NCBI RefSeq assembly: GCF_003966895.1
Contig: NZ_AP018449.1
Coordinates: 37,424-69,423 of the forward strand
DNA from: Methylomusa anaerophila
Lineage (GTDB): Bacteria; Bacillota; Negativicutes; Sporomusales; Sporomusaceae
Length of the DNA stretch: 32,000 bases
Direction: 5' to 3'
Shown here: piece after piece, positions 1-32,000 of the stretch
Numbering within the stretch: the first letter of the stretch is position 1
How the letters are laid out: every line of letters starts with the position of its first letter
Program-made: the position numbers and the translations under genes
The notes under the pieces: model-generated
The model's input: only the letters and a program-made list of their open reading frames with translations
Databases searched by the model: none
Told to the model about the DNA's origin: nothing

Positions 1-1690
1 ATTCCAACCCGTTGACCCTGGCCTCGCCGGAATTTATGAATTGCGACACCGTTCTGCCGGCAGAATTAGTAGAGGTGCGTTTATCAATTGCGTCGGTAAC
101 TTCTGTGTGATAAATATTCAACCGGGCCAGCAAGGTTTTATCAATCTGATAATCACAGCCCAGTTCATAGTTTATGTCTTTCTCCGGCTGTAGGCCAGGA
201 TTGCTTTTATAAATTACGCCGCTGCTGCTTTCCCAGTCTTTGGCCAATTCATAGATATTCGGCGCTCTGAATGCCCTGCCGATGGAAGAACGCAAGGTCA
301 GCTTATCATTCACCTTATGAACCAATCCTAACTTAGGATTAAAGCTGTCGGCTTTTCCTTCCGGCGTATTATTGGTTACATAACTTTTTCTCGTGCTGTC
401 ATAGCCGTAAGTGTAACCGTCGTAAAAACGCCAGTCATCGTAACGGCCGCCCAGATATAGAGTGGTATTGTCCCCCAGTTTATGTTCGTCCTGGATAAAG
501 AATGACTTGGTTTCCGTCTTGCCGCCAATATTGTTGTCACTATTGGCGGTAGCGGCAGCCAAATTCCAGCCCTGGGAAGCGACGGTCAGGGTTTTGGCCA
601 GGGAATCCGATTGTTCAGACCTATAAGTATAACCGATGGTCAATAAGTCTTTGGCGCCGGCTCGGAAGTTATACTGTACTTCCGCCTGGCTGGTTTTGGA
701 CGGATTACGGGTATAAGAATAGGAAGACACATTATTGGTAGTGGAACTGTAACTTGTAGATACGTACCAGCTTTCTATTTCCTTTTCGCCATAGCTGACT
801 TTCAGAGAACTGTCGCCGCTTAATTTTCTTTCATAATTTAAAGCCCAGATATTCTCATTGCGCACGCCGCGGTCGGCAACATTCTCACTGAAATATTTAA
901 ACCGGTTGTCGCCTCCCGACAAACTTATTTTGCTGTTCTCATCCGGGTGATACACTAATTTGCCGTCATACAATTTTCTGTCCATGCCGTTTTTGCCGGG
1001 ATTTCTAGCCCTATCCGATCCCGGTATGGCGGTTTTATAGTCTTCATAAGCTTCATAGCCGTCGGCAGAAGTACCCTGCGCCGTTATGAAGTAATCCAGT
1101 TTGCCGGCGCTGCCGCTGGTAAAAATCGACCTGGTGATTGTTTCCTGGCCGCCGATGCCCAGGCGGACAATTGTTTCTTGCCTGGCTTTTTCTTTGGTGA
1201 TGATATTAATAACCCCGCCCATAGCATTAGAACCGTATAAAGCAGATGCCGGCCCTTTGATTACCTCAATTCTGTCAATATTTTCCGTAGGAATATTCGC
1301 CAGGTTGACGCCGCCGTTATAGCCGTCGTTAATCGGCTGACCATCCATCAGGATGAGGATCTGCTTCTGACTGCCAAAGCCCCGCATGGTGATCGAATCG
1401 GTGGAACCCATGAGTCCTTTAGTTTGGCGGACATAGACCCCCGGAACCGTCGTCAGGGCATCAGCCACCCGTTTAATATTTTTTTTATCCATATCCTCTT
1501 TGGTAATGACTTCTACCGCCGCCGGCACATCCTTCACCTTTTTCTCCGTTTTCGTAGCCGTAACCACCACTTGATCCAGGTCAAACGTCGGTTCCCCGTC
1601 CGCCGCCGCCCCGGCAAGGTTTACAGGAGACAGCGCCACACCTAACGTTATCGCTAAGGCAATACTTTTGTGCTCCCACTTTTTGTTCAT
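1..1690 (-). CDS. TonB-dependent outer-membrane receptor, first ~563 codons (3' end of gene lies beyond window start)
   Basis: Absent from the ORF track because the frame has no stop inside the window. Hand translation of the minus strand from ATG 1690..1688 (GGAGGG 6 nt upstream) stays open to position 2. It reads MNKKWEHKSIALAITLGVALSPVNLAGAAADGEPTFDLDQVVVTATKTEKKVKDVPAAVEVITKEDMDKKNI...IEVIKGPASALYGSNAMGGVINIITK...NPGLQPEKDINYELG..., showing a signal peptide, TonB-box/plug motifs and barrel strands. Clear paralogue of the receptor at 18227..19739. Confidence 0.9.
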   Translation of the reverse strand, partial: MNKKWEHKSIALAITLGVALSPVNLAGAAADGEPTFDLDQVVVTATKTEKKVKDVPAAVEVITKEDMDKKNIKRVADALTTVPGVYVRQTKGLMGSTDSITMRGFGSQKQILILMDGQPINDGYNGGVNLANIPTENIDRIEVIKGPASALYGSNAMGGVINIITKEKARQETIVRLGIGGQETITRSIFTSGSAGKLDYFITAQGTSADGYEAYEDYKTAIPGSDRARNPGKNGMDRKLYDGKLVYHPDENSKISLSGGDNRFKYFSENVADRGVRNENIWALNYERKLSGDSSLKVSYGEKEIESWYVSTSYSSTTNNVSSYSYTRNPSKTSQAEVQYNFRAGAKDLLTIGYTYRSEQSDSLAKTLTVASQGWNLAAATANSDNNIGGKTETKSFFIQDEHKLGDNTTLYLGGRYDDWRFYDGYTYGYDSTRKSYVTNNTPEGKADSFNPKLGLVHKVNDKLTLRSSIGRAFRAPNIYELAKDWESSSGVIYKSNPGLQPEKDINYELGCDYQIDKTLLARLNIYHTEVTDAIDKRTSTNSAGRTVSQFINSGEARVNGLE

Positions 1691-1816
1691 TATTTTCCCT
1701 CCATTGTGTGTGTGCAAATGATCAGTTCCATGGCGCGAATAATAAATTGGCAAGTCCCGGGACCGGTAAACAACCAAATCAATCTACCGGCCTTTACAGC
1801 AAATACCCCCTTTACA

Positions 1817-1879
1817 TAAAAATGCCATGAAAAATAAACATACCCGCATACTGGGACGGGTTGTTCACCTTCATGGCAT
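1817..1879 (-). terminator. Terminator-like (attenuator) hairpin inside the 5' leader of the receptor gene
   Basis: Minus strand: 5' arm ATGCCATGAA (1879..1870) and 3' arm TTCATGGCAT (1831..1822) form a perfect 10 bp stem. It encloses an inner hairpin ACCCGT/GCGGGT and is followed by TTTTAT (1821..1817). It sits about 130 nt upstream of the start codon, so it acts as an attenuator rather than an operon-end terminator. Confidence 0.5.
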
Positions 1880-1970
1880 AAATCTTTCAACAATTCAATT
1901 ATTAATTACAAATTATTATTTAAGATCCACTCGGACTCAGTGGCAGCTTCAGCTGCCGTTACTAAGTAAT

Positions 1971-1999
1971 ATCTTACACAAGCTCGGCTATTTCGTCAA
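1971..1999 (-). promoter_or_regulatory. Sigma-70-type promoter for the receptor gene leader
   Basis: Minus strand TTGACG (1999..1994), a 17-nt spacer, then TAAGAT (1976..1971). It lies in the 345-bp gap after the CobN stop and predicts a leader of about 270 nt. Confidence 0.45.
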
Positions 2000-2035
2000 T
2001 ATATAATAATAATCCCTAATAAAAATCACCGTACC

Positions 2036-3619
2036 CTATTTCGCCATTTTAGCTTTCCAGGCGGGAACGTCTTCCATTGTCAGGATATCAATCGAGCCCC
2101 CCTGGAATTCGCCGTCAATATCGCCCATCCGTTCTTCCATCCAACCTTCAATCTCCATATATGTTTCCTGTATTCCAGCCAATATCTCAGGATCTGCCTG
2201 CCAAAGGCCGCGCTGCGCCGCTTCCAGCAGCCGCCGGGTGATCTCTTCCATGGCCCAGGGACTCTGTTCTTTAAACCAGTCGCGCATTTCATGATCCAGC
2301 ACATAGGTACGGGCGATATCATCAAATATCCAGTCACCGACTGCGCCGGTGGTAGCTTCCCAGCCATAGATGCGGCCGATGCGTTTGGCCATGTCGCCCG
2401 CGCCCTTGTAGCCGTGCCGCTTCATGCCTTCAATCCAGCGGGGGTTCAGAATCTTAATCCTGACGACCCGGTTGATTTCCTCCGCCAGGCTGGTTACCTG
2501 CGCCCGTTCCGGGTCACGGGTGTCGCCATAATAGGTCTGTACTTTCTTGCCGGAAATCATCTGCGCCGCCGCAGTCAGACCGCCATAATTGGAGAAGTGG
2601 CAGCAACAGCCAAACAAATCATATTCATCGGTAGCCACTTTATTATAAGTAACGTCCACTGTTTTCAACTGATACTCAAGCTGCGGCTGAGCCTCCCTGC
2701 CGCCTCTGTCTTTGCCGTAGGCATAGCCGCTCCAGTGCAAATAGATATCCGCCAGGTCTTTTTCCGTCTTCCAGGCCGAAGCGTAAACCGCCAAACTGAC
2801 GCCGGAACCATAGGTTCCCGGTCTGCTGCCAAAAATCCGGGCTGTCGCTTGTTCCCAGTTATTTTGATTGGCAGCCAGGTTTTCCAGCGTATGCTTGCGC
2901 ACATAATTCAGGTCGGACGGTTCGTCCAACTCCGCCACAGCCCTGATGGCCTGGTCAAGAAATTCGGTAATGCCGGGAAAACAATCCCTGAGTATGCCGC
3001 TGATCTTTAACGTTACGTCAATACGGGGACGATTAAGTTCACATAAAGGAATAATCTTGAATCCGTTTATCTTACCGCCGGGCAGCCACTTGGGCTCTAC
3101 TCCGAGGAGAGCAAGAATTTGCGCTACCTGTTCCCCGTCGGTCCACATGCAATCACCGGCATTTAGTATCATGGCGCAATTTTCCGGCAGTTTTCCCGTA
3201 TCCTGCTGATTCCTGGCCAACAGCGCCGCTGCCAGTTGCCGGCCAACCCGCCAGGCGGCCTGAGTGGGAATACGGTCAGGGTCGGCGCTGTAGAAATTCC
3301 GGCCTGTCGGCATGATATCGACACGTCCCCGTGAGATCAACCCGGACGGACCGGCGCTGATATAACCGCCTTGAAACCCATGCAGCAGGCTGTCCATCTC
3401 TTTAGAAGCCGACATTCTATTATCAATATTCAGCGTCTTTTCCTGCCACAAAGCCAATTCCTCAACCTTTTCCGCATTAACCAGATATTTTCCCAATACG
3501 CGCCCGGCAATTGCCAATAAGTTGTTACCAGCGTATTCACGTTGAATAACATGCTGTTTTCCGTCAAGCACCTTATTGGCAATTTCCAACATGGCTTTAT
3601 TATCCTGGCATAAATTCAT
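2036..3619 (-). CDS. cobN: CobN-family chelatase large subunit, C-terminal segment (527 aa) of a gene split by an in-frame TAG
   Basis: The ORF-track protein is collinear with the last ~525 residues of the intact paralogue at 19825..23751 (EMDSLLHGFQGGYISAGPSG vs EMDSLLHGLEGGYIASGPSG; NPRWIEGMKRHGYKGAGDMAKR vs NPKWIEGMKRHGYKGAGDIAKR). ATG 3619 is preceded by GGGAGGGG. It is in the same frame as 3623..5977, separated only by TAG-ATT. Confidence 0.9.
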   Translation of the reverse strand: MNLCQDNKAMLEIANKVLDGKQHVIQREYAGNNLLAIAGRVLGKYLVNAEKVEELALWQEKTLNIDNRMSASKEMDSLLHGFQGGYISAGPSGLISRGRVDIMPTGRNFYSADPDRIPTQAAWRVGRQLAAALLARNQQDTGKLPENCAMILNAGDCMWTDGEQVAQILALLGVEPKWLPGGKINGFKIIPLCELNRPRIDVTLKISGILRDCFPGITEFLDQAIRAVAELDEPSDLNYVRKHTLENLAANQNNWEQATARIFGSRPGTYGSGVSLAVYASAWKTEKDLADIYLHWSGYAYGKDRGGREAQPQLEYQLKTVDVTYNKVATDEYDLFGCCCHFSNYGGLTAAAQMISGKKVQTYYGDTRDPERAQVTSLAEEINRVVRIKILNPRWIEGMKRHGYKGAGDMAKRIGRIYGWEATTGAVGDWIFDDIARTYVLDHEMRDWFKEQSPWAMEEITRRLLEAAQRGLWQADPEILAGIQETYMEIEGWMEERMGDIDGEFQGGSIDILTMEDVPAWKAKMAK

Positions 3620-3622
3620 AAT

Positions 3623-5977
3623 CTATCCCCTCCCATTCACCGTAATAAACTCACGGATAAAACTCTTGGCACAGATATGGATCTCCTGCAGCAAATCGCC
3701 GTAGGTCTTGCCAAACGCTTCATGCCAAACATGGGGCGTTTCATGCAATGCATCATAGTCTAGACCCATCAGTTCAGCTACCAAGCGACCGAATGACCGG
3801 CTTTCTTCCGTATCGTGGCGCAAAACGGAATGGATGAAGTTCACCCTTCCTTCCCCTTGAGGAATAGAGTCAAAAATATGCATGCCGTCTTGATGCATGC
3901 TGCTTTTCATGCGGTTGAGAACGGCATGGGTTTTCTCAACTATTGCCGGGAAATCTTGATTCAAATCAATTTCGACAGTCAAATTGGCCTGGGTAATCTT
4001 TTCTGCGATCAAGTGTTCCAAGGCGTTGGCCCTGGTTTTATCCTGGGTGCAGGCCTGCTGATATTCACCCAGCATAGCTGCCAAATCATCATAAGCGCCA
4101 TAGGCTGCCGTTTCCACCATTACTGTCTGCATATGCCCGACCAGTGTGGCATAGCTGCGCCGTTTGGCTATGGTTCCTTCCGCCGGATTGTCGGTATTAT
4201 AGATGTATAAATGCGGCAACGTACCCAGGGTAAGCTCAGGATAACAGCTTTCCGACAAGCCCAACGCCTTCCCGGGAAGAAATTCCAAATTGCCGTGTGT
4301 CCCGACATGAACCAACGCGTCGGCTCCCCATACATCTTCAAGATAACGATAGGTGGCGACATACTGGTGCGTTGGCGGACATTCCGGATCATGCAGGATT
4401 TTACATACCCTGCCGTCGCAGCGCGGTCCGGCGCAACCGCGTTTGGGTTGAGCGCAAATTACGGCGTTGCCGTATTCCACGCCGGTAATAAGAATATCGC
4501 CCTGATACACCATGGCGGCAGGTACTTCGTCAATTTCTTCACCGGGAGGATTTCCCCATGTGGCAGTCATGGCCTGCCGCGCTTCGGACGGAAAGCCGTT
4601 AAACCAGCGCCGGTATTCATCTGTTTTAAGGTATCGTAATACGCCGCCTTTTTGCACAATCTCCTCAATCGGCGTCCAGCGGAAATCGGAAATGGCTTTT
4701 CTGTCCATGATGGTGTGGATAAGTTCTTCGCCATTTTGGGGCAATTCCTGCAAAGAGTAGCCCTGGCTTTGCATCTCTTTCATAATCCGGGCGACACTTT
4801 CCAGGGTGTCAAGGTTAGCGCCGCCGCCGACCGATAGTTCAGCGCCGACACAAGGATTGTTATGCAAAATAAAAGCGACTTTCCGCCGATCAACCGGTTT
4901 ATTTTTAAGGTCAATCCATTTTTTCACCCGCCGGCACAAGTAACAGATGCGGCCGGCCAGCGGCCGGTGGTATTCCAGGGCGCCGCCGGTATCAGGCTGG
5001 GGCGAACGCTCCTGGCAGGCAATCACGATAGGCTCGATAACTCCGTTCATTTCCGGCATACCGACCGCCCACACCATGCTGGCGCCAGAAATGCCATACT
5101 TGTCGGCCCGCCATTCCTCTTCGGTCTTGCTGTATGTCGTCAAGCCTTTAATAATGGGCACATTCATCCGCTGCAAAAGGTCAAATCCGTCAGTATCGCC
5201 GGTTGCTCCCTGCTCAGCCGGTTTAATCAGCATCGAGGATTGCAGATCAATCAATGCATCAATCACCGGCTGCCCTTGTTGCATAAAATATTCATTGATC
5301 ACATACCGGTTGCCCAGCGATCCGGTATCGGCATCGGCGCTGCCGGTTGCAAACGCCGGCAATGCGTTCAGCCCTAAGCCATCACACTCCCGGATGATGG
5401 AATCAATAATCTCATAGTTCTTATTAATCCAGAGGCTGCGGTAGAATAAAATCCCTACCGTGGGACGTTCCGGCTGATATCCCGGGCATTTTTTCCGGTA
5501 TTCGCCGGCACTGTCCATTATTTCGTCAACACCGGGATAATAGATGCCTTGCCAGGCCAATTCCGCCGGCGGCGCTGCCTCGCAATCCTGTCCCAGCACT
5601 TCTTTCAGCACATAGAACAAAGCGCTGCGGGCGTTTTCCTCACCGCCATAGGTTAGGTATTGCTGCACAGTGAGGGCTACCGGCCCGGGTACCGTATTAT
5701 AGACTAACAAAGCAGGCGCATTGCCAAAGACAACCACCGGTATAACCGTTGATATTTCCTTTAGGTCGCCGGACATGGCCTCCCAAACGGCATTGGCATT
5801 AGCGTATATAACCAGAACATCAGCCTCCTGCCTGGCATACCGGAAGAAAGCTTCCCGGCACTCCGCCTCACCCATGTCTTTCATGCTGTAGATTTTGAGT
5901 TCCAGACCGTCGATTTCCCTGGCGGCCGCAACTAGCGCCTGCATATAGGAACCCCACATTATCGACGCAATTTTCAT
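3623..5977 (-). CDS. cobN: CobN-family chelatase large subunit, N-terminal segment (784 aa), ends at an in-frame TAG
   Basis: Collinear with residues 1 to ~790 of the intact paralogue (HNNPCVGAELSVGGGANLDTLESVARIM vs NNNPCAGTELSVGGASHLDSLESVARIM; KILHDPECPPTHQYVA in both). I chose ATG 5977 (MKIASIMWG, matching MRIAFLTWG of the paralogue) because AGAGGTG lies 6 nt upstream. The ORF-track start at 6055 has no RBS. Confidence 0.88.
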   Translation of the reverse strand: MKIASIMWGSYMQALVAAAREIDGLELKIYSMKDMGEAECREAFFRYARQEADVLVIYANANAVWEAMSGDLKEISTVIPVVVFGNAPALLVYNTVPGPVALTVQQYLTYGGEENARSALFYVLKEVLGQDCEAAPPAELAWQGIYYPGVDEIMDSAGEYRKKCPGYQPERPTVGILFYRSLWINKNYEIIDSIIRECDGLGLNALPAFATGSADADTGSLGNRYVINEYFMQQGQPVIDALIDLQSSMLIKPAEQGATGDTDGFDLLQRMNVPIIKGLTTYSKTEEEWRADKYGISGASMVWAVGMPEMNGVIEPIVIACQERSPQPDTGGALEYHRPLAGRICYLCRRVKKWIDLKNKPVDRRKVAFILHNNPCVGAELSVGGGANLDTLESVARIMKEMQSQGYSLQELPQNGEELIHTIMDRKAISDFRWTPIEEIVQKGGVLRYLKTDEYRRWFNGFPSEARQAMTATWGNPPGEEIDEVPAAMVYQGDILITGVEYGNAVICAQPKRGCAGPRCDGRVCKILHDPECPPTHQYVATYRYLEDVWGADALVHVGTHGNLEFLPGKALGLSESCYPELTLGTLPHLYIYNTDNPAEGTIAKRRSYATLVGHMQTVMVETAAYGAYDDLAAMLGEYQQACTQDKTRANALEHLIAEKITQANLTVEIDLNQDFPAIVEKTHAVLNRMKSSMHQDGMHIFDSIPQGEGRVNFIHSVLRHDTEESRSFGRLVAELMGLDYDALHETPHVWHEAFGKTYGDLLQEIHICAKSFIREFITVNGRG

Positions 5978-6073
5978 TTTCATCACCTCTTTTTTATTTT
6001 GCCATTGGCGATTATGAGCGAGCACTAAGCAATCCTGTTGCTCGTTTGTTATCACCTCATCCTCCTGCGCATC

Positions 6074-6808
6074 TCACTCACTATACCGTGTATATAACCA
6101 CACTCCCCAGCCGTAAAATATGCAAGTTAAACCCGTCATCACTCCTGCCGCCCACCAAACATCGCCCTGCCAGCTGGCGGCCCGCAGCATGGTGTTTAAC
6201 GAAGCAATGGGCGTTAATTTCATAATAGCGGCCAGCCAAACCGGCAGATTATGCAGCGGAAAAAACGAGCCGCCAAAGAAAGTCATGGGGGTAATAAAAA
6301 AATTGTTGACAATGGAAATGTCATCCGGATTATTAACCAGCATGCCTACCACTACTCCCAAAGAAGAAAAACACAAGGCTCCCAGGATGACGCCGGCAAC
6401 TGCCGGCATACTGTTTAACCCAATCACGCTGAATGCCAGCAGGGCAACCAGGAACACCAAAGCGCCAAATAGCAAACTGCGGACCACCCCGGCCAATATG
6501 ATCCCGAAAATTACCTGACCTACCGGAATCGGACTGACGATAATATTTTGAAAATGACGAAAGTACTTGCCGGAGCTGATGGAAGAGGCTGTTTGCTGAT
6601 AGGCGTTCAACATGACGGTCACGCCGATGATACCGGCGGCTAAAAAAGGCAGATACCCGCCGTCGACGTTGACCCTGCCTCCCAGCCCCAGCCCGAAAGC
6701 AAACAGATAGATAAACGGAGAAACAAGAAAAGAGAACACATAGCCCATTTTACCGACCTTTTTCCAGAGCAGCTTCATTTCCCGCCGGAATACGGCATAC
6801 CAACCCAT
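6074..6808 (-). CDS. ABC-2 type transporter permease
   Basis: 244 aa with about 6 hydrophobic helices and an N-terminal FRREMKLLWKK motif typical of ABC-2 permeases. Its start overlaps the stop of the upstream ATPase (TGATG at 6806..6810). Confidence 0.85.
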   Translation of the reverse strand: MGWYAVFRREMKLLWKKVGKMGYVFSFLVSPFIYLFAFGLGLGGRVNVDGGYLPFLAAGIIGVTVMLNAYQQTASSISSGKYFRHFQNIIVSPIPVGQVIFGIILAGVVRSLLFGALVFLVALLAFSVIGLNSMPAVAGVILGALCFSSLGVVVGMLVNNPDDISIVNNFFITPMTFFGGSFFPLHNLPVWLAAIMKLTPIASLNTMLRAASWQGDVWWAAGVMTGLTCIFYGWGVWLYTRYSE

Positions 6809-7590: not shown

Positions 7591-7631
7591 ATTGTTACCT
7601 CGCTGCATTTTAGATAGATAATTTTTTATAA

Positions 7632-13682: not shown

Positions 13683-13724
13683 AATTCGTTTCGTGGTCGT
13701 CACCTCCGCTGTTTATATACCTAT

Positions 13725-19773: not shown

Positions 19774-19837
19774 TTACTACCCTTACTACCTTACTGCACT
19801 GCATTACTGCATCACTGTACTACCTTACTGCTTTACT
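19774..19837. repeat. Cluster of six TTACT pentamers including a 14-nt direct repeat
   Basis: TTACT occurs at 19774, 19783, 19791, 19804, 19825 and 19833. TACTACCTTACTGC occurs at 19784..19797 and 19818..19831. The cluster spans the CobN stop codon and the 85-bp gap before the receptor start. Confidence 0.7.
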
Positions 19838-23751: not shown

Positions 23752-23865
23752 TGTTGTTACCCTCCTCATCTATTCATAAGTCAGGCACCGTCCTTCAGAA
23801 TGCTTCACGACGGCTGTTCTCTCATTCTGAATCCCGGCTCCTGGCTTTCGGCCCCTTATGTTTTT

Positions 23866-25551
23866 TCACTGCAAAATGTGCAACCGGTGTTCCCCCGTCA
23901 GCGTCCCGTCTTCCCGGCGCAGCGGCGACTCGCTGCCGGCGATCGTCGTGCCGTCCGCGGCAATATTGCCGCAGATCGCAACCCCGCCGGTAGGATAAAA
24001 CCATACCAGCTTATCCGGACCGGCAGCCTGCAGATCTAGGCAGTAAAGTCCGGAACGCTCCTTTTTCCGGGCCACATAATTATGATATATGCCGGCGACC
24101 ATATAGCGGCTGTCGGCGGAAAAACGCGCTTTTCCCAAACCGCCCTCCGTTTGCCACTTCCAGAGAATATTGCCTGAGCGATCATAAGCAAATAGGGTGG
24201 TGGCGTCAGGATGAGTGAAAGATGGCGCTAAAGCAAAGCTCTTATCCGCCATATAAGTTGCCGTTGTCATAAAATAGACCGTACCGTCGTCCCTGACCCG
24301 CGCCACATTGCCGGACGCATACACCGGGACGCCGCTGACCTGGATAATCTTGCTGACCTGATACAACCATACCGGCTTGATGTTGCCGTTCTTTTTGTTA
24401 AGATCAACCTCCGACAAATCAAATAACATGCCCCGGTTGTCGCCGATGAACACGGCTGCATACTTCCCGTTGGGCGACATATTAATGCCTTCATTAATTC
24501 CGACCCATTTGAAGGTAGGCCGGGCCGGCCGCAATGTATAAGCAGCAGCCAGTTCTCCCGTTTTCCCGTTTATGAGCCTGATCACGCCGTCCGGATACTG
24601 CTGGGTGTCAATCGAACCCGGATTAGCATGAATGTAGTTGGCAAAAAGCACTTTCTGCCCATCGGCGGAAACTGAGATCCTGGATATAGTTGTATCCATC
24701 ACCCCGGCTGCCGGATACCGCCAAAGGGTATTGCCGGTAGAGGTGTCAAACGCCATCATAATGCTCTGGGTCGGGTTGGTTACAACCACTTTTTCACCGG
24801 CTTTTTCCACCACCCGCTGCACATACTCGCTGCCGGCCACAATCATGTTGCCGCTGACGGCGAGATTTCTCACCTTGGGCCGGTTGCTGGGATTCCGGTT
24901 TGTCCCTTGTCCAATGATAGGAGAAAAAGAGTACTTCCATAATAAATTTCCCGATAACGTTTCAAAAGCGTAGAGATTGGCGTCGGCGCTGGCCTCGCCT
25001 ATGAACAGTGTCTTACCGTCGTCGGCAAAGACCGCACTGATGGGCGTACCGTTGGGAACGCCGTAATCCCAGAGCTTCTTGCCGGTCCGGTTGTAAACAT
25101 ACACCCGGTTATCATAAGAGGCCAGCGCAATATATTTCCCGTCCGGCGCTACGGCTGCGTCGTCAAATACTGTCGAACCCGATTCATTAATGGTCGGAAA
25201 CTCCTCAAACTCATCGAGCCTGGCCACACCGCCGACCAATATTCCGGGCCGGGCCGGCGCCGCATCCGACCAGGATTTCCCCGCCATTTTCACTTCATAT
25301 CTGGCGCCGGTCCGCCAATTCCCGCCAAAGAGGACGGTACGCTCCCCCAATACTTTTCCTTTATCAGGCTGCACATCGCCATTAATACTCAATTGAATGT
25401 CCGCCGCCGCTACTGTCTTGTCGGCAGTTACCGCCAGGCCGTTTTTGGTGAAGACGGCCTGCAGCCCGCCCGGCAAACCTTGGTCCTTGTCACTGCAGCC
25501 TGCCGTTACTAACATCAGCGCCAATAGCAAGCCGCATATCCATAACCGCAT
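23866..25551 (-). CDS. Lipoprotein with PQQ-like beta-propeller repeats, paralogue 2
   Basis: Lipobox LVTAGC. Repeats NRVYVYNRTGKKLWDY and ANLYAFETLSGNLLWKY. Ends GEHRLHILQ like paralogue 1. AGGAGGAGG lies 5 nt upstream of ATG 25551. Confidence 0.88.
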   Translation of the reverse strand: MRLWICGLLLALMLVTAGCSDKDQGLPGGLQAVFTKNGLAVTADKTVAAADIQLSINGDVQPDKGKVLGERTVLFGGNWRTGARYEVKMAGKSWSDAAPARPGILVGGVARLDEFEEFPTINESGSTVFDDAAVAPDGKYIALASYDNRVYVYNRTGKKLWDYGVPNGTPISAVFADDGKTLFIGEASADANLYAFETLSGNLLWKYSFSPIIGQGTNRNPSNRPKVRNLAVSGNMIVAGSEYVQRVVEKAGEKVVVTNPTQSIMMAFDTSTGNTLWRYPAAGVMDTTISRISVSADGQKVLFANYIHANPGSIDTQQYPDGVIRLINGKTGELAAAYTLRPARPTFKWVGINEGINMSPNGKYAAVFIGDNRGMLFDLSEVDLNKKNGNIKPVWLYQVSKIIQVSGVPVYASGNVARVRDDGTVYFMTTATYMADKSFALAPSFTHPDATTLFAYDRSGNILWKWQTEGGLGKARFSADSRYMVAGIYHNYVARKKERSGLYCLDLQAAGPDKLVWFYPTGGVAICGNIAADGTTIAGSESPLRREDGTLTGEHRLHILQ

Positions 25552-25600: not shown

Positions 25601-27487
25601 CTAATCCATCGCCGTCCGTTTCAAAGAATCTCCCAACCGGCAGCCTATAGCCGCCCCGATGGCACAGTAGACAAATCCGGCAGCCAGCACCGTCCAAATG
25701 TACCAGTCGGCGTAATACAGCCGGTACAACATCATGTACGCCATCATGCTCATATAGGAGGTAATGATGTCCACCACCCCGCAGACCACAGCCAGAATGA
25801 CAATGCTGAGACGGCTCCGGCAGCCTCTCCCTCTGGTAACGCCGGTAAAGAAGAGACCGGCTTCCAGAAAAACCGCCAAGGCCGCGTACAGCAAAATGTT
25901 CATCGGCGAGAAATGTCCAAAAATAAACCCGTTGAGAATAAACCTGACAACGATCATCAGGCTGACGGCTCCCGGCCTGGGCAGTACAACAGCCAAGGCT
26001 ACCATCAGCGCATACAGGACCGTTTGGCTGAAAAATCCGGTAAACAAAAAACTGAACGGACCAAAAATTACGTGAGCAATATCCATGAGTACCGTTGCCG
26101 GCAGATTAACGGTAACAAAGGTGACCGTTCCGAATAGAGCGACAATAACCATTTCCTTGCTGGACACCCGCCTGAGCGCCGACTCCTGCCGCCAAACAAA
26201 CCAACTGACGCCCAGCACCGCCACCAGCGTCATAAACAGTGTCGCATACAGGGGCTTGTTGTCATGAACGGTCAACGTCACCGGTTGTTTCGACGTGCTT
26301 ACCACCTGACTGACGCCGAATATCCTGGTTTCCGTCTGCAATTCATATTTGCCGGCGACGGCCCTATTTTCATCAAGATAAATGGGAAGAATCACCTGGT
26401 TGCTGGAATGGGCGGGTACGGCCGCTATACCGTAACTATAGCCCAGTCCGCCGTTTTTGTTTTGCGGCGCGGTAAAAGCCGGCGACATCTTGCCCGTAAC
26501 GATATCCGTCATTTTGGCCGTGACCAAGGCTAAAACCTGTTGATCACCGTCGTTGCTGATTCTTATGGCGGCAAAAGTAAGCGGATCTTCATCAAAACGC
26601 CGGTCTTCGCGTTCCCCTGTAAAAAACTGCAACAAACGGCTGGGCGGCTGATAGGCCAGAGCACCCGTCTGAACTTTCGGCTCCAGGCGGCCGGAAGCAT
26701 CCACCGGCAAGTCGACTTTGGCAACCTTGACATTATTGCTGATGTCGGCGAGGGAAGAGATTTGGATTACCGCCTGTTTGTCCCATTCCCGCTGTTCCCG
26801 GCCATTATCCAAATGCAAGCGGGCGGTTATCGTTGCCTTCCGCCCCGCTTCACCGGCTTTTACTTGGATCTGTTCATTCCATATCTCGTTTTCCGCCGTC
26901 AGACTGGCCGGTCCGAGCACATGGTTTACGCCATCGCGCCGTTCCAGTCTCATGACGGGAGGAACGGCTGCCACTTCAAGCTCAGGCGGAATGGAAACAT
27001 CCAAGATCCCGCCAACCTTTTGATCAGCATGATTGGTGATCAGAAGGTTAATGGCAAAAGTACTGCCATTGGTAACCAGACCCACATTTTCCTCGCTGTT
27101 TAGCCCATAGGGAGCTTGCAGAAAAAATGATATTGTCGCCGGCGGCTTGTCCGGGCTCCTGGCAGACAAGCGGATCTTGCCGCCGTCCCGCAGGCAAATC
27201 TCAAACTCATATTCATGCCCCGGCCTCCAGGGAATAAACACTGGGAGGACTTTATGACCGCCTGGTCCCGTATCGCTGGCGATAACCGTTTCCCCCGGCT
27301 TATCCCTGACGCGGATTTGCCTTATTTGCTGCTCCCGGTCAAATGTAATTTCGACTCCCTGCCGGGTAAACTCAATCTGTCCCCCCGGCGCTTCCTGCCC
27401 GGCTCCCAACAGCCGCCAGGCGCCATAGACCAGACCAATGACCAGCAATACGAGGCCAAATTTCTGCAACTTGTTATAGTGGGGCAA
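25601..27487 (-). CDS. 628-aa membrane protein: N-terminal anchor, ~400-aa extracytoplasmic region, C-terminal ~7-TM domain
   Basis: The only possible in-frame start is TTG 27487 (a TAA lies 18 nt upstream in frame). Hydrophobic segments are FGLVLLVIGLVYGAW at the N-terminus and six to seven from residue ~415 to the end. No family is recognised with certainty. Confidence 0.75.
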   Translation of the reverse strand: MPHYNKLQKFGLVLLVIGLVYGAWRLLGAGQEAPGGQIEFTRQGVEITFDREQQIRQIRVRDKPGETVIASDTGPGGHKVLPVFIPWRPGHEYEFEICLRDGGKIRLSARSPDKPPATISFFLQAPYGLNSEENVGLVTNGSTFAINLLITNHADQKVGGILDVSIPPELEVAAVPPVMRLERRDGVNHVLGPASLTAENEIWNEQIQVKAGEAGRKATITARLHLDNGREQREWDKQAVIQISSLADISNNVKVAKVDLPVDASGRLEPKVQTGALAYQPPSRLLQFFTGEREDRRFDEDPLTFAAIRISNDGDQQVLALVTAKMTDIVTGKMSPAFTAPQNKNGGLGYSYGIAAVPAHSSNQVILPIYLDENRAVAGKYELQTETRIFGVSQVVSTSKQPVTLTVHDNKPLYATLFMTLVAVLGVSWFVWRQESALRRVSSKEMVIVALFGTVTFVTVNLPATVLMDIAHVIFGPFSFLFTGFFSQTVLYALMVALAVVLPRPGAVSLMIVVRFILNGFIFGHFSPMNILLYAALAVFLEAGLFFTGVTRGRGCRSRLSIVILAVVCGVVDIITSYMSMMAYMMLYRLYYADWYIWTVLAAGFVYCAIGAAIGCRLGDSLKRTAMD

Positions 27488-27515: not shown

Positions 27516-27576
27516 AAAAAAACCATGAAGAATTGCCGGACGCTGCGCCGCCAGCACCGGTCAATAACCTTCATGG
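27516..27576 (-). terminator. Terminator-like/attenuator hairpin upstream of the 628-aa gene
   Basis: Minus strand: CCATGAAG (27576..27569) pairs with CTTCATGG (27530..27523). Nested inside are CCGG/CCGG and GCTG/CAGC pairs. It is followed by TTTTTTT (27522..27516) and ends 28 nt before the TTG start. Confidence 0.55.
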
Positions 27577-27644
27577 CTACTGTTTTATAAATTCATGTTA
27601 ACTTTGCTGCTCTTAAACAGACAAATATATGGTATTCCACATTC

Positions 27645-27732: not shown

Positions 27733-28476
27733 TCAATCGCGTACATGCAATAAGGTCCAAATCCCCGCCCCGGTCAGAATGACCGCATAGGCGCCCAGGA
27801 CGGCCACCGACGGCCAGGGGGTATGGCCGCCTGCTCCGAGGATGCGCAAGGCATAGGTTGCATGGGTCAGCGGCAAAATTTCAATGATCCACCGCAACAC
27901 AAGGGGAAATTTGTCAACGGTAAAAAAGGTTGCACATAGAAACGACATAGGAAGGAGAAAATAAGTGCTGAAATTCCCCATATCCTCATGGGAATCAATC
28001 ACCATAGCAGCCACAACACCCATGGCGGCAAATAAAGCGCATATCAGCATAAGCACCAATAAAAAACCGGCATGAATTGCAATCGTGGCGCCAAAAAAAT
28101 GCGCCAGCAGGAAGATAACCGCGCAGGATATCATCCCCCGCAAGGTGCCTGCCAATATCTTGCCAATCACAAAGGCTGCCGGACCAACCGGAGCAACCAG
28201 GTATTCCTCAAAGGATTTATGATACAGCCGCATCATATTGAGCGGTGAGGCTACAGAGTTAAAGCTGATATTCATGGCATTCAGGGCCATAATTCCCGGA
28301 ACGATAAAATTAAGATAGCTCCCGCCGTTCATCTGGATGCCGCGGCCAAGTCCCCAGCCGAAAGCTACCAGGTACAATACAGGGGTCACCATCCGCGACA
28401 GGATAAACTTGGTCATGCGGCGGTGCAGCACCAGCCAATCCCGCCAGAATACCGTGTAAATATCGTTGAAGAACAT
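27733..28476 (-). CDS. ABC-2 type transporter permease
   Basis: 247 aa with 6 predicted helices. Paralogue of 13725..14516. The start overlaps the ATPase stop (TAATG at 28474..28478). Confidence 0.9.
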   Translation of the reverse strand: MFFNDIYTVFWRDWLVLHRRMTKFILSRMVTPVLYLVAFGWGLGRGIQMNGGSYLNFIVPGIMALNAMNISFNSVASPLNMMRLYHKSFEEYLVAPVGPAAFVIGKILAGTLRGMISCAVIFLLAHFFGATIAIHAGFLLVLMLICALFAAMGVVAAMVIDSHEDMGNFSTYFLLPMSFLCATFFTVDKFPLVLRWIIEILPLTHATYALRILGAGGHTPWPSVAVLGAYAVILTGAGIWTLLHVRD

Positions 28477-29315
28477 TATCCTGCCACCTTTCGCCCGGTC
28501 AACTCGACAAAAACATCTTCCAGGTTGGACCGGCGTATGACTGTGTCTGCTGTTAAGTTGCCGGCAAAAGCGCCGGCATCGTTCCGGTGGGAGAAGAACC
28601 GGTATTCGGTTACGCCTGTTTCATTCCATTCCACCACATATTCCCCCAGACGCCGGCACAGCTCCACCGGGCTGTCGAGGGCAATCAGCCTGCCTTTGTC
28701 AAGGATGGCCACCCGCTGGCAGAGGTTTTCCGCTTCTTCGATATAATGAGTGGTCAGGAGCACCGTAATGCCATCCCCGTTCAACCGGCGCACCAAATCC
28801 CACAAGCGCCGCCGCACCTGCGGGTCCAAACCGACGGTAGGCTCATCCAGAAACAATATCCGGGGACGGTGCAGGAGGGCTCTGGCAATCATCAGGCGGC
28901 GCTTCATGCCGCCGGAAAATTTTTGCACCATGTCATGGCTCCTGTCAGTCAGTTCCACATACTCCAGCAGTTCATCAATGCGCTTGCGCCGGTCATCACG
29001 CGGCATATGGTGCAAACGGCCATGCAGTTCCAGGTTTTCCCGCGCCGTCAAATCAATGTCCAGATTCAAATGCTGCGGCACCACCCCAATGGTGTTCTTT
29101 ATCTCCAAATCATTGTCCGGCAGTTTCCAGCCATTGATGGTGACCGTTCCGGCAGTCGGCTTGGTCAACATGGTCAAGATGCGGATAGTCGTCGTTTTGC
29201 CCGCACCGTTCGGCCCCAACAGGCCAAACGTTTCCCCTTGTTCAATGTGCAGGCTGAGTTTGTCGACTACGGTGCGCTCCTCAAATTTCTTAACCAGTCC
29301 GTCGATCACGATCAT
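28476..29315 (-). CDS. ABC transporter ATP-binding protein
   Basis: Walker A GPNGAGKTT, signature FSGGMKRR, Walker B ILFLDEPTVGLD. Start ATG 29315 (MIVIDGLVKKF; GGGAGAAG upstream) is preferred over the ORF-track 29333. Confidence 0.9.
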   Translation of the reverse strand: MIVIDGLVKKFEERTVVDKLSLHIEQGETFGLLGPNGAGKTTTIRILTMLTKPTAGTVTINGWKLPDNDLEIKNTIGVVPQHLNLDIDLTARENLELHGRLHHMPRDDRRKRIDELLEYVELTDRSHDMVQKFSGGMKRRLMIARALLHRPRILFLDEPTVGLDPQVRRRLWDLVRRLNGDGITVLLTTHYIEEAENLCQRVAILDKGRLIALDSPVELCRRLGEYVVEWNETGVTEYRFFSHRNDAGAFAGNLTADTVIRRSNLEDVFVELTGRKVAG

Positions 29316-29329
29316 ATACGCTTCTCCCA

Positions 29330-30430
29330 TCATTTATGCCCATGAGCATGCGAATGCGTATGCGTATGTTGGTGGGAATGATCGTGACTATGGGCATGCT
29401 GATGTCCCAGAATTTCCTGTAGTTTTTTCTGCTCCGAACCGATTTCCTGGAAGGGTTTTTTTCGCATACGGTGCATAAGGGCCAACTCGACGACTTCAGA
29501 AACGTCCGAACGTTCAACTTTATCCCGGCCGTTAAGTGCGGCCAAAGCCTTGGCGGCCTTTAGCATCACCAGGTCGGCGCGATGTCCGTCAACTCCCATT
29601 TGAATGGCGATATCGGCAATATTGAACAGCACATCGTCATCATGGCTAACAGCGGCCAACAAGTTTTGCGCCGCTGCTATCTTGTCCCGCAGCTTGCTTT
29701 GTTCTTCTTCCCACTGCGCCGCGAATGCTTCCTGGTTCTCTTCAAAGGCCGTCCGGCGTTTAATGACATCCACGCGTTTGGCGGTGTCGGCAATGCCCTC
29801 AATGGTTACGCACAGCCCGAAGCGGTCCAGGAGCTGCGGTCTCAGCTCGCCTTCTTCCGGGTTCATGGTGCCGACAAGGATAAACTGGGCCGGATGGGAG
29901 AAAGACACGCCTTCCCGTTCGACGGTATTTACCCCCATGGCGGCGGCATCGAGAAGTACGTCAACAATATGATCATCCAGGAGATTGACCTCATCCACAT
30001 AGAGAATTCCCCGGTTGGCCTCAGCCAACACTCCTGGTTCGAATTTTTTCTCGCCGTGTTTAATAGCGTGTTCAATGTCAAGAGTGCCGACAACCCGGTC
30101 TTCAGTCGCCGATACCGGCAAGTTCACCACTTTCATCGGGCGTTTGGACCGCGGCAGTTTTTCGCCTTTTTCAACGCGCTCATGGCACTGCGGACAATAC
30201 ATCAACGGCTGATCGGGATCACAGTGGTAAGGGCAGTCGGCCACCACATCAATTTCCGGCAGCAATTCGGCCAAGGCCCGCACTGCCGTTGATTTGGCGG
30301 TTCCCTTTTCCCCCCGGATCAGGATACCGGACAGGCGCGGATTGATTACATTCAGCATCAAACCTTTTTTCATGCTTTCCTGGCCGACAATGGCTGCAAA
30401 CGGATAGTTCATCGGTTTATGATTATGCAT
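29330..30430 (-). CDS. chlI: ChlI/BchI-like AAA+ chelatase ATPase subunit with C-terminal (HX)11H tail
   Basis: FAAIVGQESMKKGLMLNVINPRLSGILIRGEKGTAKST (Walker A), ILYVDEVNLLDDH (Walker B), FILVGTMNPEEGELRPQLLDRFGL. Ends HQHAHSHDHSHQHTHTHSHAHGHK. AAGAGGAGAG lies 6 nt upstream of ATG 30430. Confidence 0.92.
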   Translation of the reverse strand: MHNHKPMNYPFAAIVGQESMKKGLMLNVINPRLSGILIRGEKGTAKSTAVRALAELLPEIDVVADCPYHCDPDQPLMYCPQCHERVEKGEKLPRSKRPMKVVNLPVSATEDRVVGTLDIEHAIKHGEKKFEPGVLAEANRGILYVDEVNLLDDHIVDVLLDAAAMGVNTVEREGVSFSHPAQFILVGTMNPEEGELRPQLLDRFGLCVTIEGIADTAKRVDVIKRRTAFEENQEAFAAQWEEEQSKLRDKIAAAQNLLAAVSHDDDVLFNIADIAIQMGVDGHRADLVMLKAAKALAALNGRDKVERSDVSEVVELALMHRMRKKPFQEIGSEQKKLQEILGHQHAHSHDHSHQHTHTHSHAHGHK

Positions 30431-30454
30431 GGTACACTCTCCTCTTTAAGATGG

Positions 30455-30488
30455 GAACTGCTTATATCTGACGATTTCTAAGCAGTTC
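30455..30488. other. Perfect 10-bp inverted repeat (stem-loop) in the chlD-chlI intergenic gap
   Basis: GAACTGCTTA (30455..30464), a 14-nt loop, then TAAGCAGTTC (30479..30488). No U-run follows on the transcribed (minus) strand. Confidence 0.7.
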
Positions 30489-30518
30489 GCGGCATTTGGC
30501 AACCTGAGTAGCAGTACA

Positions 30519-32000
30519 TTAAGCCAGGGCGCCGCGAACTATATTTACCAGACTATCAACTTTCAACTGATCAATTGTATAGCACTCAGCTCCCAGACGG
30601 GTTGCCAGCTCTTGCGCCTTGCCGAAGGACAGCAGGCCTTTCTGTTCGGTGTCAACCACAATATACTTAATATCAAACTCTTCGCGCATGTTCGCGGCCG
30701 CCCGGTGAGCCTCCGCCAGCGGTTTGTCCTCAGCCATGGCGACATTCGCCTTGCCGTCGGACAAAATCACGACAATGGGGCGCATGTGCGGACTGCGTTT
30801 AAGGTGCTGTCTTACGACTTCCTGCGCTTTAATCAGTCCTGCCGCTAACGGCGTCTTCCCGCCAACCGGCAGCTCAACCAGACATTTTTGCGCCAATTCG
30901 ACGCTATTGGTCGGCGGCAGCAGCACCTCAGCCTGATCCCCTTTAAACGCCACCATGGCAACCCGGTCCCGTTTTTGATAAGCGTCCTGCAATAAAGACA
31001 ATATCGCGCCCTTGGTCTCGATCATGCGTTGCTTGGCCCCCATCGAACCGCTGGCATCGACGACAAACAACATAAAGTTGCCGATGCGCTTCTCCCGGAC
31101 TTTTTCCCGGATGTCACCGGTTTCAATGACCAGCGCCATGCCGTTTGAGCGGCGGCTGCGCTGGAAAGGCGCCGCGGCCCGGATGGTGGCGTCAATAGCC
31201 AGGTCATCCCGTTCACGGTGGCTGGTGCTGCGTACATAGCGGCCGGTGCTGGAATCGGTTTTGGTGCGCGAACGCCGGCCTGAGCCGCGTCTGGGCTGAC
31301 GGTCTTTGTTCAGGGTAATGCGCTTGACGGCAAAAGGTTTGCCAAGGGCAAAGACTACCTCGGTAGACGGTTTGGCCTTGCTGTTGTTATCTTTTTCGTC
31401 CCTTTGATCCTCCTGCCGCTCCTCTTCCTGCTGGTTCTCAGGCGGAGGCGGCGGCGGATTGCCCTGCTCTTCCTGTTCCTGATCTTCATTCTGATCCTCA
31501 GGCGGCTCAGGCTGCTCCTGTTCCTGCGGCTGCGTTTCCGACTCTTCCGGCGGCTGACGGCGGCGGTGCGCCAGCACCAGCGGCGCTATCGCCAGCACAT
31601 CCGCTTCCGTTACCTCCCGGTGCCCAAGCCACGCGGCATAAGTTACGGCGGCCCGCACCAGCACGATATCCGCCCGGTGGCCGGCGGCATGGGCTTCGGC
31701 GCAGAGCCGGCCGATCAGGGAATACCGTTCTTCCGGCAACGCCACTGCCGGCAGCAGTTTCCGGGCCGCGCCGACCTTTTTCCGCAATATATCCTGCTCT
31801 TGCCGCCAGTGTTCCCGGAACCGGGCCGGATCGGTTTCAAAAGCCTCGCGGCGCTTAATGATTTCCACCCGCGCCTCCCGGTCGGTAAGACCGGTTACTT
31901 CAACACAAAGGGCAAAACGGTCTAATAGCTGCGGCCTTAAGTCACCTTCCTCCGGATTCATGGTTCCCACCAGGATAAATTCCGCCGGATGGGTAATGCT
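30519..32000 (-). CDS. chlD: ChlD/BchD-like chelatase subunit (AAA+ remnant, acidic Pro-rich linker, vWA domain); 5' end outside window
   Basis: The frame is open to the window end (..ITHPAEFILVGTMNPEEGDLRPQLLDRFAL..). Linker PPEESETQPQEQEQPEPPEDQNEDQEQEEQGNPPPPPPENQQEEE. vWA/MIDAS region MLFVVDASGSMG...VVILSDGKANV. Confidence 0.92.
   Translation of the reverse strand, partial: SITHPAEFILVGTMNPEEGDLRPQLLDRFALCVEVTGLTDREARVEIIKRREAFETDPARFREHWRQEQDILRKKVGAARKLLPAVALPEERYSLIGRLCAEAHAAGHRADIVLVRAAVTYAAWLGHREVTEADVLAIAPLVLAHRRRQPPEESETQPQEQEQPEPPEDQNEDQEQEEQGNPPPPPPENQQEEERQEDQRDEKDNNSKAKPSTEVVFALGKPFAVKRITLNKDRQPRRGSGRRSRTKTDSSTGRYVRSTSHRERDDLAIDATIRAAAPFQRSRRSNGMALVIETGDIREKVREKRIGNFMLFVVDASGSMGAKQRMIETKGAILSLLQDAYQKRDRVAMVAFKGDQAEVLLPPTNSVELAQKCLVELPVGGKTPLAAGLIKAQEVVRQHLKRSPHMRPIVVILSDGKANVAMAEDKPLAEAHRAAANMREEFDIKYIVVDTEQKGLLSFGKAQELATRLGAECYTIDQLKVDSLVNIVRGALA

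Follow-up and report, generated by a model that had tools for sequence, protein, structure and literature searches.

The stretch of DNA analysed here, referred to as the window, comprises 32,000 nt of the genome of Methylomusa anaerophila (NZ_AP018449.1), a Negativicute that uses methanol. It is most of one co-directional gene cluster more than 40 kb long, in which a CobN/ChlI/ChlD chelatase is encoded together with TonB-dependent receptors, beta-propeller lipoproteins, a putative component of an energy-coupling factor (ECF) importer and ABC-2 transporters; all genes of the system lie on the minus strand. Taken singly, these parts are of known kinds (a class I chelatase, an ECF importer, a TonB-dependent receptor, an ABC-2 transporter). 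We propose, tentatively, that together they form an envelope-spanning acquisition system around a cytoplasmic class I chelatase, which would import a bulky nickel or cobalt chelate, transfer the metal and export the ligand. As the metal we consider nickel and/or cobalt most likely, ahead of haem iron, given that a hairpin motif in leaders of the cluster is common to larB, nikA and cbiM genes and that ChlI carries a His-rich tail; on the same two grounds we do not favour the haem option of the first-pass annotation, which was made from the sequence of the window. Expression is probably tied to nickel or cobalt limitation via the hairpin, which has the form of a conserved terminator.

The chelatase shows the features of its class in Pfam and NCBIfam searches, with an AAA+ ChlI, a ChlD bearing a VWA domain and a full-length large subunit. 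CobN2, which is 100% identical to an M. anaerophila protein named cobaltochelatase subunit CobN by NCBI, matches PF02514 with 1246 bits over profile positions 2–1089, passes the NCBIfam CobN model NF004646 (1533 against a cut-off of 1468), and lies narrowly above TIGR02257 and narrowly below BchH, both of NCBIfam. Profile comparison with PDB entries gave 586 bits for M. tuberculosis CobN, 521 for Synechocystis ChlH and 371 for HmuS (9d26), the best stretch with HmuS being query residues 817–1267, in the C-terminal third only. These bit scores against PDB and NCBIfam models place the CobNs nearer to CobN and ChlH than to HmuS. No signal peptide and no terminal hydrophobic or transmembrane segment was found at either end of CobN1 or CobN2, and by these features both proteins are cytoplasmic. 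The likeness to HmuS drawn in the first-pass annotation is thus a weak one, with no terminal anchors, the lowest of the three PDB scores, and ChlI/ChlD partners retained.

CobN1 had been taken as a single gene, and its split was overlooked. It consists of two open reading frames (ORFs) of 810 and 527 aa with an in-frame TAG between them; one codon on stands an ATG, preceded by the Shine-Dalgarno-like GGGAGGGGA (window 3617–3640, minus strand). A split CobN of 780–810 plus 507–527 aa recurs in Sporomusa carbonis (L011) and in two metagenome-derived Negativicutes (L008 and L013). We consequently regard CobN1 as a natural two-gene form, because relatives have the same split, and reject the idea that it is a pseudogene.

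ChlI ends in a His-rich tail, HQHAHSHDHSHQHTHTHSHAHGHK (29330–29410, minus strand); of its last 40 residues, 12 are His. The tail is kept in S. carbonis, where the orthologue has 9 His, so that it occurs in two genera. Such tails are typical of nickel and cobalt metallochaperones, and we know of none in characterised ChlI or BchI proteins. ChlI and ChlD accompany CobN in every locus whose contig reaches far enough, and in the M. anaerophila cluster a single ChlI/ChlD pair serves both CobNs.

The 628-aa membrane protein X628 has no Pfam or NCBIfam match. Its AlphaFold model has an N-terminal anchor helix, three beta-sandwich ectodomains (residues 36–407) and a C-terminal helical membrane domain of 6–7 transmembrane helices. 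Foldseek searches with the whole model returned generic Ig-like and integrin matches only, an uninformative result because the ectodomains drive the matches, and the membrane domain (the C-terminal 225 aa) was therefore modelled separately, with a predicted local distance difference test (pLDDT) score of 69 and a predicted TM-score (pTM) of 0.69. The best match of this model is the ECF S component 5edl (probability 1.0, TM-score 0.51/0.57, 192 columns), and the second PDB match, TmRibU 5kbw, is also an ECF S component (probability 0.97). At the level of sequence, the membrane domain gave no match by Pfam at E ≤ 10, by PDB profile search or by hhalign against one ECF S component, so that the S-component assignment rests on fold and gene position. 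X628 adjoins EcfAA'-CbiQ wherever flanking sequence suffices, and it is most likely an atypical S component of an ECF importer, with a 400-aa ectodomain, a feature not known in S components.

The first-pass annotation did not recognise the ECF importer, whose ATPase and T subunit sit just past position 32000. A metagenome contig bearing identical genes covers this region. The genes ahead of ChlD encode CbiQ with 286 aa, a 552-aa protein with two ABC ATPase domains, X625, which is a paralogue of X628 with 625 aa, and a TPR protein. The T component and two ABC_tran domains are encoded together directly upstream of ChlD, and this CbiQ/double-ATPase pairing is conserved in related loci.

The X628 family numbers 401 representative clusters among 1.84 billion proteins, and the neighbour of CobN in Methanosarcina mazei is an X628 homologue (30% identity over 525 residues, E 2e-81). 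Aromatic residues, Arg, Asp, Glu and Cys make up most of the positions that are invariant between archaeal and bacterial members of the family, with no conserved His, so that X628 would suit an organic ligand better than a bare ion. By hhalign (93.8%, E 1.7e-7), the first beta-sandwich of X628 and the N-terminal domain of the propeller lipoproteins are homologues, which suggests that the two proteins belong to one apparatus. Propeller 2 has full-length Methanosarcina homologues at 28–29% identity; a PDB profile search with the propeller family found generic WD40 proteins only and no BtuG-like match.

A scan of genome contigs using CobN2 alone found no relative. A scan with the X628 family returned 33 loci, to whose ORFs the window proteins were then matched. 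Propeller, X628, EcfAA', CbiQ and CobN recur together in these 33 genome loci, which come from archaea and at least four bacterial phyla, and an ABC-2 ATPase and permease join the set in archaeal and Omnitrophota loci. The order in about 22 Methanosarcina species and Methanococcoides is propeller-propeller-CobN-X52x-EcfAA'-CbiQ-ABC ATPase-ABC-2 permease, with a fused ChlI-D gene close by in M. mazei and one related metagenome-assembled genome. Negativicutes have propeller-X62x-EcfAA'-CbiQ-CobN (single or split)-receptor-ChlD, and Omnitrophota have ABC ATPase-permease-receptor-EcfAA'-CbiQ-propeller-X56x-CobN-receptor. The common core is present in Syntrophobacteraceae, plus a HlyD adaptor by a fused ABC protein; short contigs from Nitrospinota, Tectomicrobia and deltaproteobacteria carry the ECF and propeller part only. 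In a monoderm Firmicute (L167) the set is complete and has CbiZ, NikBC-like permeases and DUF4198 on its flanks, neighbours that have a link to metals, as does CooT beside the system in L008. The linkage of CobN to uptake and export genes, which the first-pass annotation had noticed in the window, is therefore conserved far past Negativicutes (the 33 loci and L167).

Diderm loci add TonB-dependent receptors and ExbB, ExbD and TonB genes, and in other relatives the same CobN clade stands beside Peripla_BP_2/FecCD importers. Importers of that type carry bulky chelates such as siderophores, haem and B12. These two contexts argue for a bulky substrate, and because CobN-type enzymes bind tetrapyrroles the imported chelate would most plausibly be a tetrapyrrole.

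We note two further arrangements among the relatives. In Ammonifex degensii (CP001785; L166, 10001–23882) the genes after a CobN of 48% identity encode two Peripla_BP_2 proteins, an ABC ATPase, a 446-aa protein corresponding to the C-terminal part of CobN only, ExbB, DUF2149, FecCD and an ABC-2 permease; here the same CobN clade is paired with a different importer. In Methanosarcina and Methanococcoides a protein of about 196 aa that has no Pfam match is encoded ahead of the two propeller genes (L006 7829–8422; also L016, L022 and L026), and an S-layer protein gene adjoins it.

That the locus merely serves ordinary cobalamin biosynthesis or corrinoid salvage, with a standard late cobaltochelatase and coincidental adjacency of transporter genes, has in its favour the NCBI name of CobN2 and the presence of CbiZ or CobO near the system in single loci. 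The transporter linkage, however, is conserved over archaea and several bacterial phyla, and an early-insertion pathway is expected in these anaerobes. No cob or cbi gene flanks the cluster (window plus 9 kb upstream), and the cobalamin riboswitch RF00174 had no match in the window or in six related loci, seven loci in all; the view of the first-pass annotation that these are not orthodox B12 loci stands. We consider ordinary B12 synthesis very improbable. The 2025 study of HmuS likewise assigns such 'CobN' sequences of archaea and anaerobes to clusters of their own, whose function is unclear and which are unlinked to cob genes (PMC12583661).

The pairing of ABC-2 permease c with a neighbouring ABC ATPase is conserved in the loci of Methanosarcina, Methanococcoides and Omnitrophota, and L167, the monoderm Firmicute, has it too. 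The first-pass annotation also counted the RND pump as part of the system, but the pump has no counterpart in any of the related loci matched and so is not conserved outside this lineage, and the HlyD adaptor has no close counterpart in related loci; the two look like a lineage-specific insertion. They are placed between permease b/propeller 1 and ATPase a/permease a (7632–11965, minus strand). In Syntrophobacteraceae (L038, L039) an unrelated HlyD adaptor is encoded beside a fused ABC protein, and this juxtaposition of adaptor and ABC transporter would favour an export role for the ABC-2 transporters.

The hairpin motif has a conserved base, GCCAUGAAGG, pairing with UCAUGGC, a variable but stable upper stem, and then a U run. 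Two matches occur in the window against 0.00 expected in shuffles: copy 1 folds at -30 kcal/mol (z -6.6) and copy 2 at -32 kcal/mol (z -4.4), and seven hairpin copies range from -24 to -36 kcal/mol, their z-scores lying between -4.3 and -7.1. Copy 1 lies in the leader of receptor 1, which the first-pass annotation had recognised as a leader while overlooking the hairpin inside it. Part of this leader shares 77% identity with the sequence that precedes X624 in S. carbonis, and it also resembles the region upstream of a propeller gene in another Negativicute. Five further loci of Negativicutes carry the motif ahead of exbB, propeller or X62x genes. Rfam 15, which includes the cobalamin and NiCo riboswitches, gave no match at gathering scores in the window and none at E ≤ 10 in 1600–2100; Rfam scans of six related loci gave no match.

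An exact-pattern scan of metagenome contigs found at least 120 motif loci. Among the matches listed there are 92 distinct motif cores; the three pattern-free bases are complementary to AGG 58 times, where about 6 would be expected, and the variable inner part of the hairpin folds better than shuffles (median z -2.6). The consensus base stem has 11 pairs. Pfam was run on 65 downstream ORFs among these matches, and the families found were AIRC (LarB-like; 11/65), SBP_bac_5 (7/65), ExbB and Plug (5/65 each), CbiM (4/65), DUF4198, PDGLE and ECF_trnsprt (3/65 each) and CobN (2/65). By NCBIfam, three of the LarB-like genes are above the LarB cut-off, one NikA-like gene is below its cut-off, and one gene is a CbiM/CbiN fusion; ORFs upstream of the motif are far more mixed in family. 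The motif is thus associated with nickel/cobalt genes, and from the families downstream of it we take it to mark genes of nickel and/or cobalt supply. Among the matches listed, six motif loci have a more distant CobN-like gene (26–34% identical), in four of the six together with a receptor.

The hairpin is a candidate nickel/cobalt-related attenuator or riboswitch. The possibility that the AUG within the motif opens a leader peptide was rejected, as neither frame nor peptide is conserved, and a DNA operator such as a NikR box is disfavoured by the arm spacing of 24–44 nt, the upper-stem pairing kept despite sequence change, and the U run.

Three other features were seen around the motif. A second conserved stretch, AAAGGGGGnGUnUGCCGUAAAGGCYG, follows the U run (window 1770–1812, minus strand; also L011, L008, L014 and L015). 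DUF3842 is encoded directly upstream of the motif in 5 of the 51 upstream ORFs scanned among the matches listed, and also in L008 (203–816), where DUF3842 and then CooT, a member of a nickel-binding protein family, come just upstream of the system. Two motif contigs carry cobalamin riboswitches, L118 at 1364–1552 (plus strand) and L047 at 3885–4054 (minus strand). The motif lies farther downstream on these contigs, close to genes of the CobN-like and NikA-like types, which suggests that some loci may combine a B12 signal with a metal signal.

The same nickel and cobalt signals could be read in another way, namely that the system is a backup biosynthetic chelatase, in which imported Co2+ or Ni2+, free or loosely chelated, is inserted into an endogenous corrin- or sirohydrochlorin-type tetrapyrrole, with no tetrapyrrole import, when metal is too scarce for the ATP-independent CbiK/CbiX or CfbA. 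In its favour, CobN2 scores above cut-off with NCBIfam cobaltochelatase models, the ChlI tail resembles those of metallochaperones, the motif is common to the metal-ion importers CbiM/NikM and to NikA-like genes, and the hosts consume much corrinoid and, in methanogens, F430. This explanation nevertheless leaves the conserved ABC-2 exporter and the HlyD/RND additions without a role. The X628 family has no conserved His, which CbiM and NikM use for metal; sister loci use Peripla_BP_2/FecCD, typical of bulky chelates; and there are no cob/cbi genes and no B12 riboswitch at the loci examined. We judge such a backup enzyme to be rather unlikely, even though class I chelatases that have chaperones function at a lower cobalt availability than class II enzymes (PMC10206600).

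If the system instead acquires a nickel or cobalt chelate, as we prefer, four steps can be envisaged. TonB-dependent receptors would bring the bulky metal chelate over the outer membrane, energised by ExbB/ExbD/TonB as encoded in related diderm loci. The beta-propeller lipoprotein would pass it to the ECF importer, with X628 or X625 as S component and EcfA-A' and CbiQ as energising partners. In the cytoplasm, CobN with ChlD and the His-tailed ChlI could use ATP either to strip the metal from its ligand or to load a tetrapyrrole. The ABC-2 transporter may then expel or recycle the ligand, with the RND pump and adaptor added in M. anaerophila and HlyD in Syntrophobacteraceae.

Several points weigh against this proposal. 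The S-component assignment leans on a moderate-confidence model (pLDDT 69) and on gene position, without sequence similarity, and ABC-2 transporters are sometimes not exporters. The motif could be a conserved terminator that has no sensing role; the enrichment counts are not independent, because related contigs are among the matches listed. Nickel and cobalt are inseparable by these data and the regulon is possibly broader, since two motif contigs carry cobalamin riboswitches, and the nickel/cobalt link holds for bacteria only, as archaeal loci are without the motif. Finally, the CobN-like 'BtuS' proteins of M. barkeri change with the iron and sulfur source (PMC10846266), which fits iron or haem too.

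In the haem version, receptors and importer would bring in iron porphyrin, CobN/ChlI/ChlD would remove the iron, and ABC-2 and RND transporters would expel protoporphyrin, making the system a cytoplasmic, ATP-driven counterpart of HmuS. Many of the hosts are cytochrome-containing anaerobes, and the cluster conserves both importers and exporters; the top NCBIfam match of receptor 1 is a haemin receptor family, albeit below its cut-off. The CobN-like HmuS is moreover a proven haem dechelatase tied to a TonB-dependent receptor (PMC12583661), and the M. barkeri proteins just mentioned vary with iron source. HmuS, however, uses NADH and membranes rather than the ChlI/ChlD that is conserved here (PMC12583661), and the CobNs are nearer to CobN/ChlH and lack its membrane anchors. 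The leader motif is shared by larB, nikA-like and cbiM genes, not by iron genes, and Pfam found neither HmuY nor any other haem-specific gene among the window products. Haem as the substrate is, on balance, improbable.

The closest known parallels are the Hmu system of Bacteroidota (HmuY-HmuR-HmuS-HmuTUV) and BtuS1/BtuS2 of Bacteroides fragilis, in which a CobN-superfamily gene is likewise coupled to a TonB-dependent receptor and ExbB-type energisers. Metalloporphyrin salvage by receptor-adjacent CobN-like proteins was proposed by Rodionov et al. in 2003, as cited in PMC6460266. HmuS is a protein of about 1,460 aa, membrane-anchored at both ends, periplasm-facing and NADH-using, and works without ChlI/ChlD (PMC12583661); BtuS is likewise membrane-anchored and periplasm-facing (PMC12583661, PMC6460266). 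In M. anaerophila, by contrast, CobN is cytoplasmic and partnered by ChlI/ChlD, matches HmuS weakly, and is joined by an ECF importer, propellers and an ABC-2 exporter. Of the hmu gene context, the window has a TonB-dependent receptor and related loci have ExbB/ExbD/TonB; no product gave an HmuY-type match by Pfam or NCBIfam.

With the class I chelatases (CobN-CobS-CobT and ChlH/BchH-ChlI-ChlD) the system has in common a full-length CobN/ChlH fold, an AAA+ ChlI, a VWA ChlD and, presumably, ATP-driven action; it differs in lying outside cob/cbi/bch operons without a B12 riboswitch, always by transport genes, and in its His-tailed ChlI and sometimes split CobN. The group I ECF nickel/cobalt importers (CbiMNQO, NikMNQO, LarMNQO) also pair a CbiQ-type T subunit and ATPases with a capture subunit, and cbiM/nikM-type genes have the leader motif, whereas the putative S component here has about 540–640 aa with three beta-sandwich ectodomains, lacks CbiM/NikM similarity and conserved His, and is encoded beside two ATPase domains fused in one protein. 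The B12 capture system of Bacteroides, BtuB with BtuG, likewise combines the gene of a beta-propeller surface lipoprotein with that of a TonB-dependent receptor whose ligand is of the tetrapyrrole type, although the propellers here have no detectable BtuG sequence similarity in the PDB profile search and there is no B12 riboswitch. Pyoverdine recycling through PvdRT-OpmQ, in which a chelate is imported, its metal removed and the ligand exported by an ABC pump with an adaptor, may serve as an analogy, although the proteins are entirely different and metal release there is periplasmic and reductive.

In the literature that could be searched we found no description of this combination of parts, of an ectodomain-bearing S component, of the domain common to X628 and the propellers, of the spread from methanogens to diderm Firmicutes, or of the hairpin motif. 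The statement of the first-pass annotation that described cob or hmu loci lack the propellers, the 628-aa protein and the exporters agrees with this search.

CobN-like genes outside the B12 and chlorophyll pathways are common in methanogens, anaerobic methanotrophic (ANME) archaea and anaerobic bacteria, and the locus gives them defined, conserved partners: a surface propeller and a putative ECF S component of a new kind, besides an ABC-2 exporter, ChlI/ChlD and, in diderms, receptors. If the nickel/cobalt link is true, it bears on the supply of trace metals to methanogens and acetogens, which limits methane and acetate output in sulfidic habitats, and class I chelatases gain a second type of reaction. 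If the hairpin senses metal, it would be an uptake-repressing counterpart of the NiCo riboswitch, which governs efflux. A bolder picture, which we think doubtful as a whole, is that of an ancient machine of methanogenic archaea and anaerobic bacteria that uses a tetrapyrrole-type chelate as carrier or source of nickel or cobalt, with capture by a surface propeller, ECF import of a new type through an ectodomain-bearing S component, stripping or re-metallation by CobN/ChlI/ChlD, re-export of the ligand and, in bacteria, control by a new class of terminator RNA that responds to nickel/cobalt and has larB, nikA and nikMN genes under its control as well.

Features of the M. anaerophila cluster and copies of the hairpin motif elsewhere. 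Positions are those of the window unless a locus is named.
Feature	Position	Strand	Basis and remarks
ChlD-type subunit, AAA lid and VWA	30519–32000	-	N-terminus outside window; full protein 668 aa (L003, L009)
ChlI-type AAA+ chelatase subunit	29330–30430	-	Pfam, NCBIfam; His-rich C-terminal tail
ABC ATPase c, DrrA/NodI-like	28476–29333	-	Pfam, NCBIfam
ABC-2 permease c	27733–28476	-	Pfam
Hairpin motif copy 2	27517–27577	-	Exact pattern match; start codon of X628 29 nt downstream
X628, putative S component	25601–27487	-	AlphaFold models, Foldseek, gene position
Common N-domain in X628 (residues 37–117)	27137–27379	-	hhalign
Beta-propeller lipoprotein 2	23866–25551	-	Lipobox LVTAG/C (cleavage at the slash); PQQ_2/WD40
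Common N-domain in propeller 2 (~110 N-terminal residues)	25230–25460	-	hhalign
CobN2, class I chelatase large subunit	19825–23769	-	CobN-Mg_chel (PF02514)
Receptor 2, N-terminal fragment (513 aa)	18227–19739	-	Plug and barrel profile positions 36–277
Transposon inside receptor 2	15143–18226	+	Pfam; terminal repeats; target duplication
Transposon AAA_22 ATPase	17225–18028	+	Pfam
Transposon rve/Mu-type transposase	15936–17228	+	Pfam
Transposon DUF6431 gene	15242–15853	+	Pfam
Receptor 2, C-terminal fragment	14544–15142	-	TonB barrel profile positions 272–436; junction sequence
ABC-2 permease b	13725–14516	-	ABC2_membrane; without neighbouring ATPase
Beta-propeller lipoprotein 1	12012–13703	-	PQQ_2/WD40; lipobox LATTG/C (cleavage at the slash)
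Common N-domain in propeller 1 (~110 N-terminal residues)	13380–13600	-	hhalign
HlyD-family membrane-fusion adaptor	10682–11965	-	HlyD_D23 and HlyD_3
RND (AcrB-type) pump	7632–10685	-	ACR_tran, 777 bits
ABC ATPase a	6808–7608	-	ABC_tran
ABC-2 permease a	6074–6808	-	ABC2_membrane
CobN1, N-terminal part (810 aa)	3623–6055	-	CobN-Mg_chel profile positions 2–654; ends at TAG 3623–3625
CobN1, C-terminal part (527 aa)	2036–3619	-	CobN-Mg_chel profile positions 647–1088
Receptor 1 leader, 345 nt	1691–2035	-	Promoter-like site 1971–1999 (TTGACG-17-TAAGAT); fold z-score -2.4
Hairpin motif copy 1	1819–1877	-	Exact pattern match; within receptor 1 leader
TonB-dependent receptor 1	1–1690	-	563 intact codons; C-terminus beyond window start; Plug and barrel
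Motif copy, L011	9853–9920		
Motif copies, L008	838–905, 96–152		
Motif copy, L013	5268–5340		
Motif copy, L014	8175–8245		
Motif copy, L015	3170–3216		
Motif copy, L038	19795–19841		

The first-pass annotation had described the window as two tandem modules with homologous partners. All of its family calls were borne out by Pfam and NCBIfam (CobN-Mg_chel, Plug and TonB barrel, PQQ_2/WD40, ABC2_membrane, ABC_tran, ACR_tran, HlyD, ChlI, and ChlD with VWA), as was its statement that the window holds no cob, cbi or hem gene, which extends to the 9 kb upstream (Pfam). The peptide motifs that it cited are present in the sequence, and so are the overlapping junctions of 4 nt or 1 nt at 10682–10685, 6808 and 28476. 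The partner proteins are real but old paralogues, with identities of 48% between CobN1 and CobN2, 49% between propellers 1 and 2, 50% between permeases b and c, 43% between ATPases a and c and 38% between receptors 1 and 2, a range of 38–50% from which only permease a departs (28–29% to b or c). While the paralogy is genuine, the two modules are not equivalent, because there is a single ChlI/ChlD pair and permease b is without an adjoining ATPase.

The receptors have the features of TonB-dependent receptors, a Plug domain and a 22-strand barrel, receptor 2 being disrupted. The best NCBIfam matches of receptor 1 are to haemin, B12 and siderophore receptor families, all below cut-off, with the haemin receptor family on top (202 bits, cut-off 317); CirA, BtuB and PhuR match similarly weakly and give no distinction of substrate class.

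Receptor 2, which had been taken as intact, is cut by a 3,084-bp Mu/Tn-like element. Its terminal inverted repeats are imperfect and 15 nt long, TGTTA(A/G)(T/C)TTGCAAAA, the two ends being TGTTAATTTGCAAAA and TGTTAGCTTGCAAAA, and a target duplication of 6 bp, ATTTGA, lies on either side of it, at 15137–15142 and 18227–18232. Automatic repeat finding missed these ends, which were located by reading the junctions. Short-read assemblies with identical genes end at the transposon. The element is external to the system and inactivates receptor 2, and it probably has a polar effect on the genes downstream. Excising it together with one copy of the duplication yields ...SYDLNLDYRL... and a receptor 2 frame of 701 aa.

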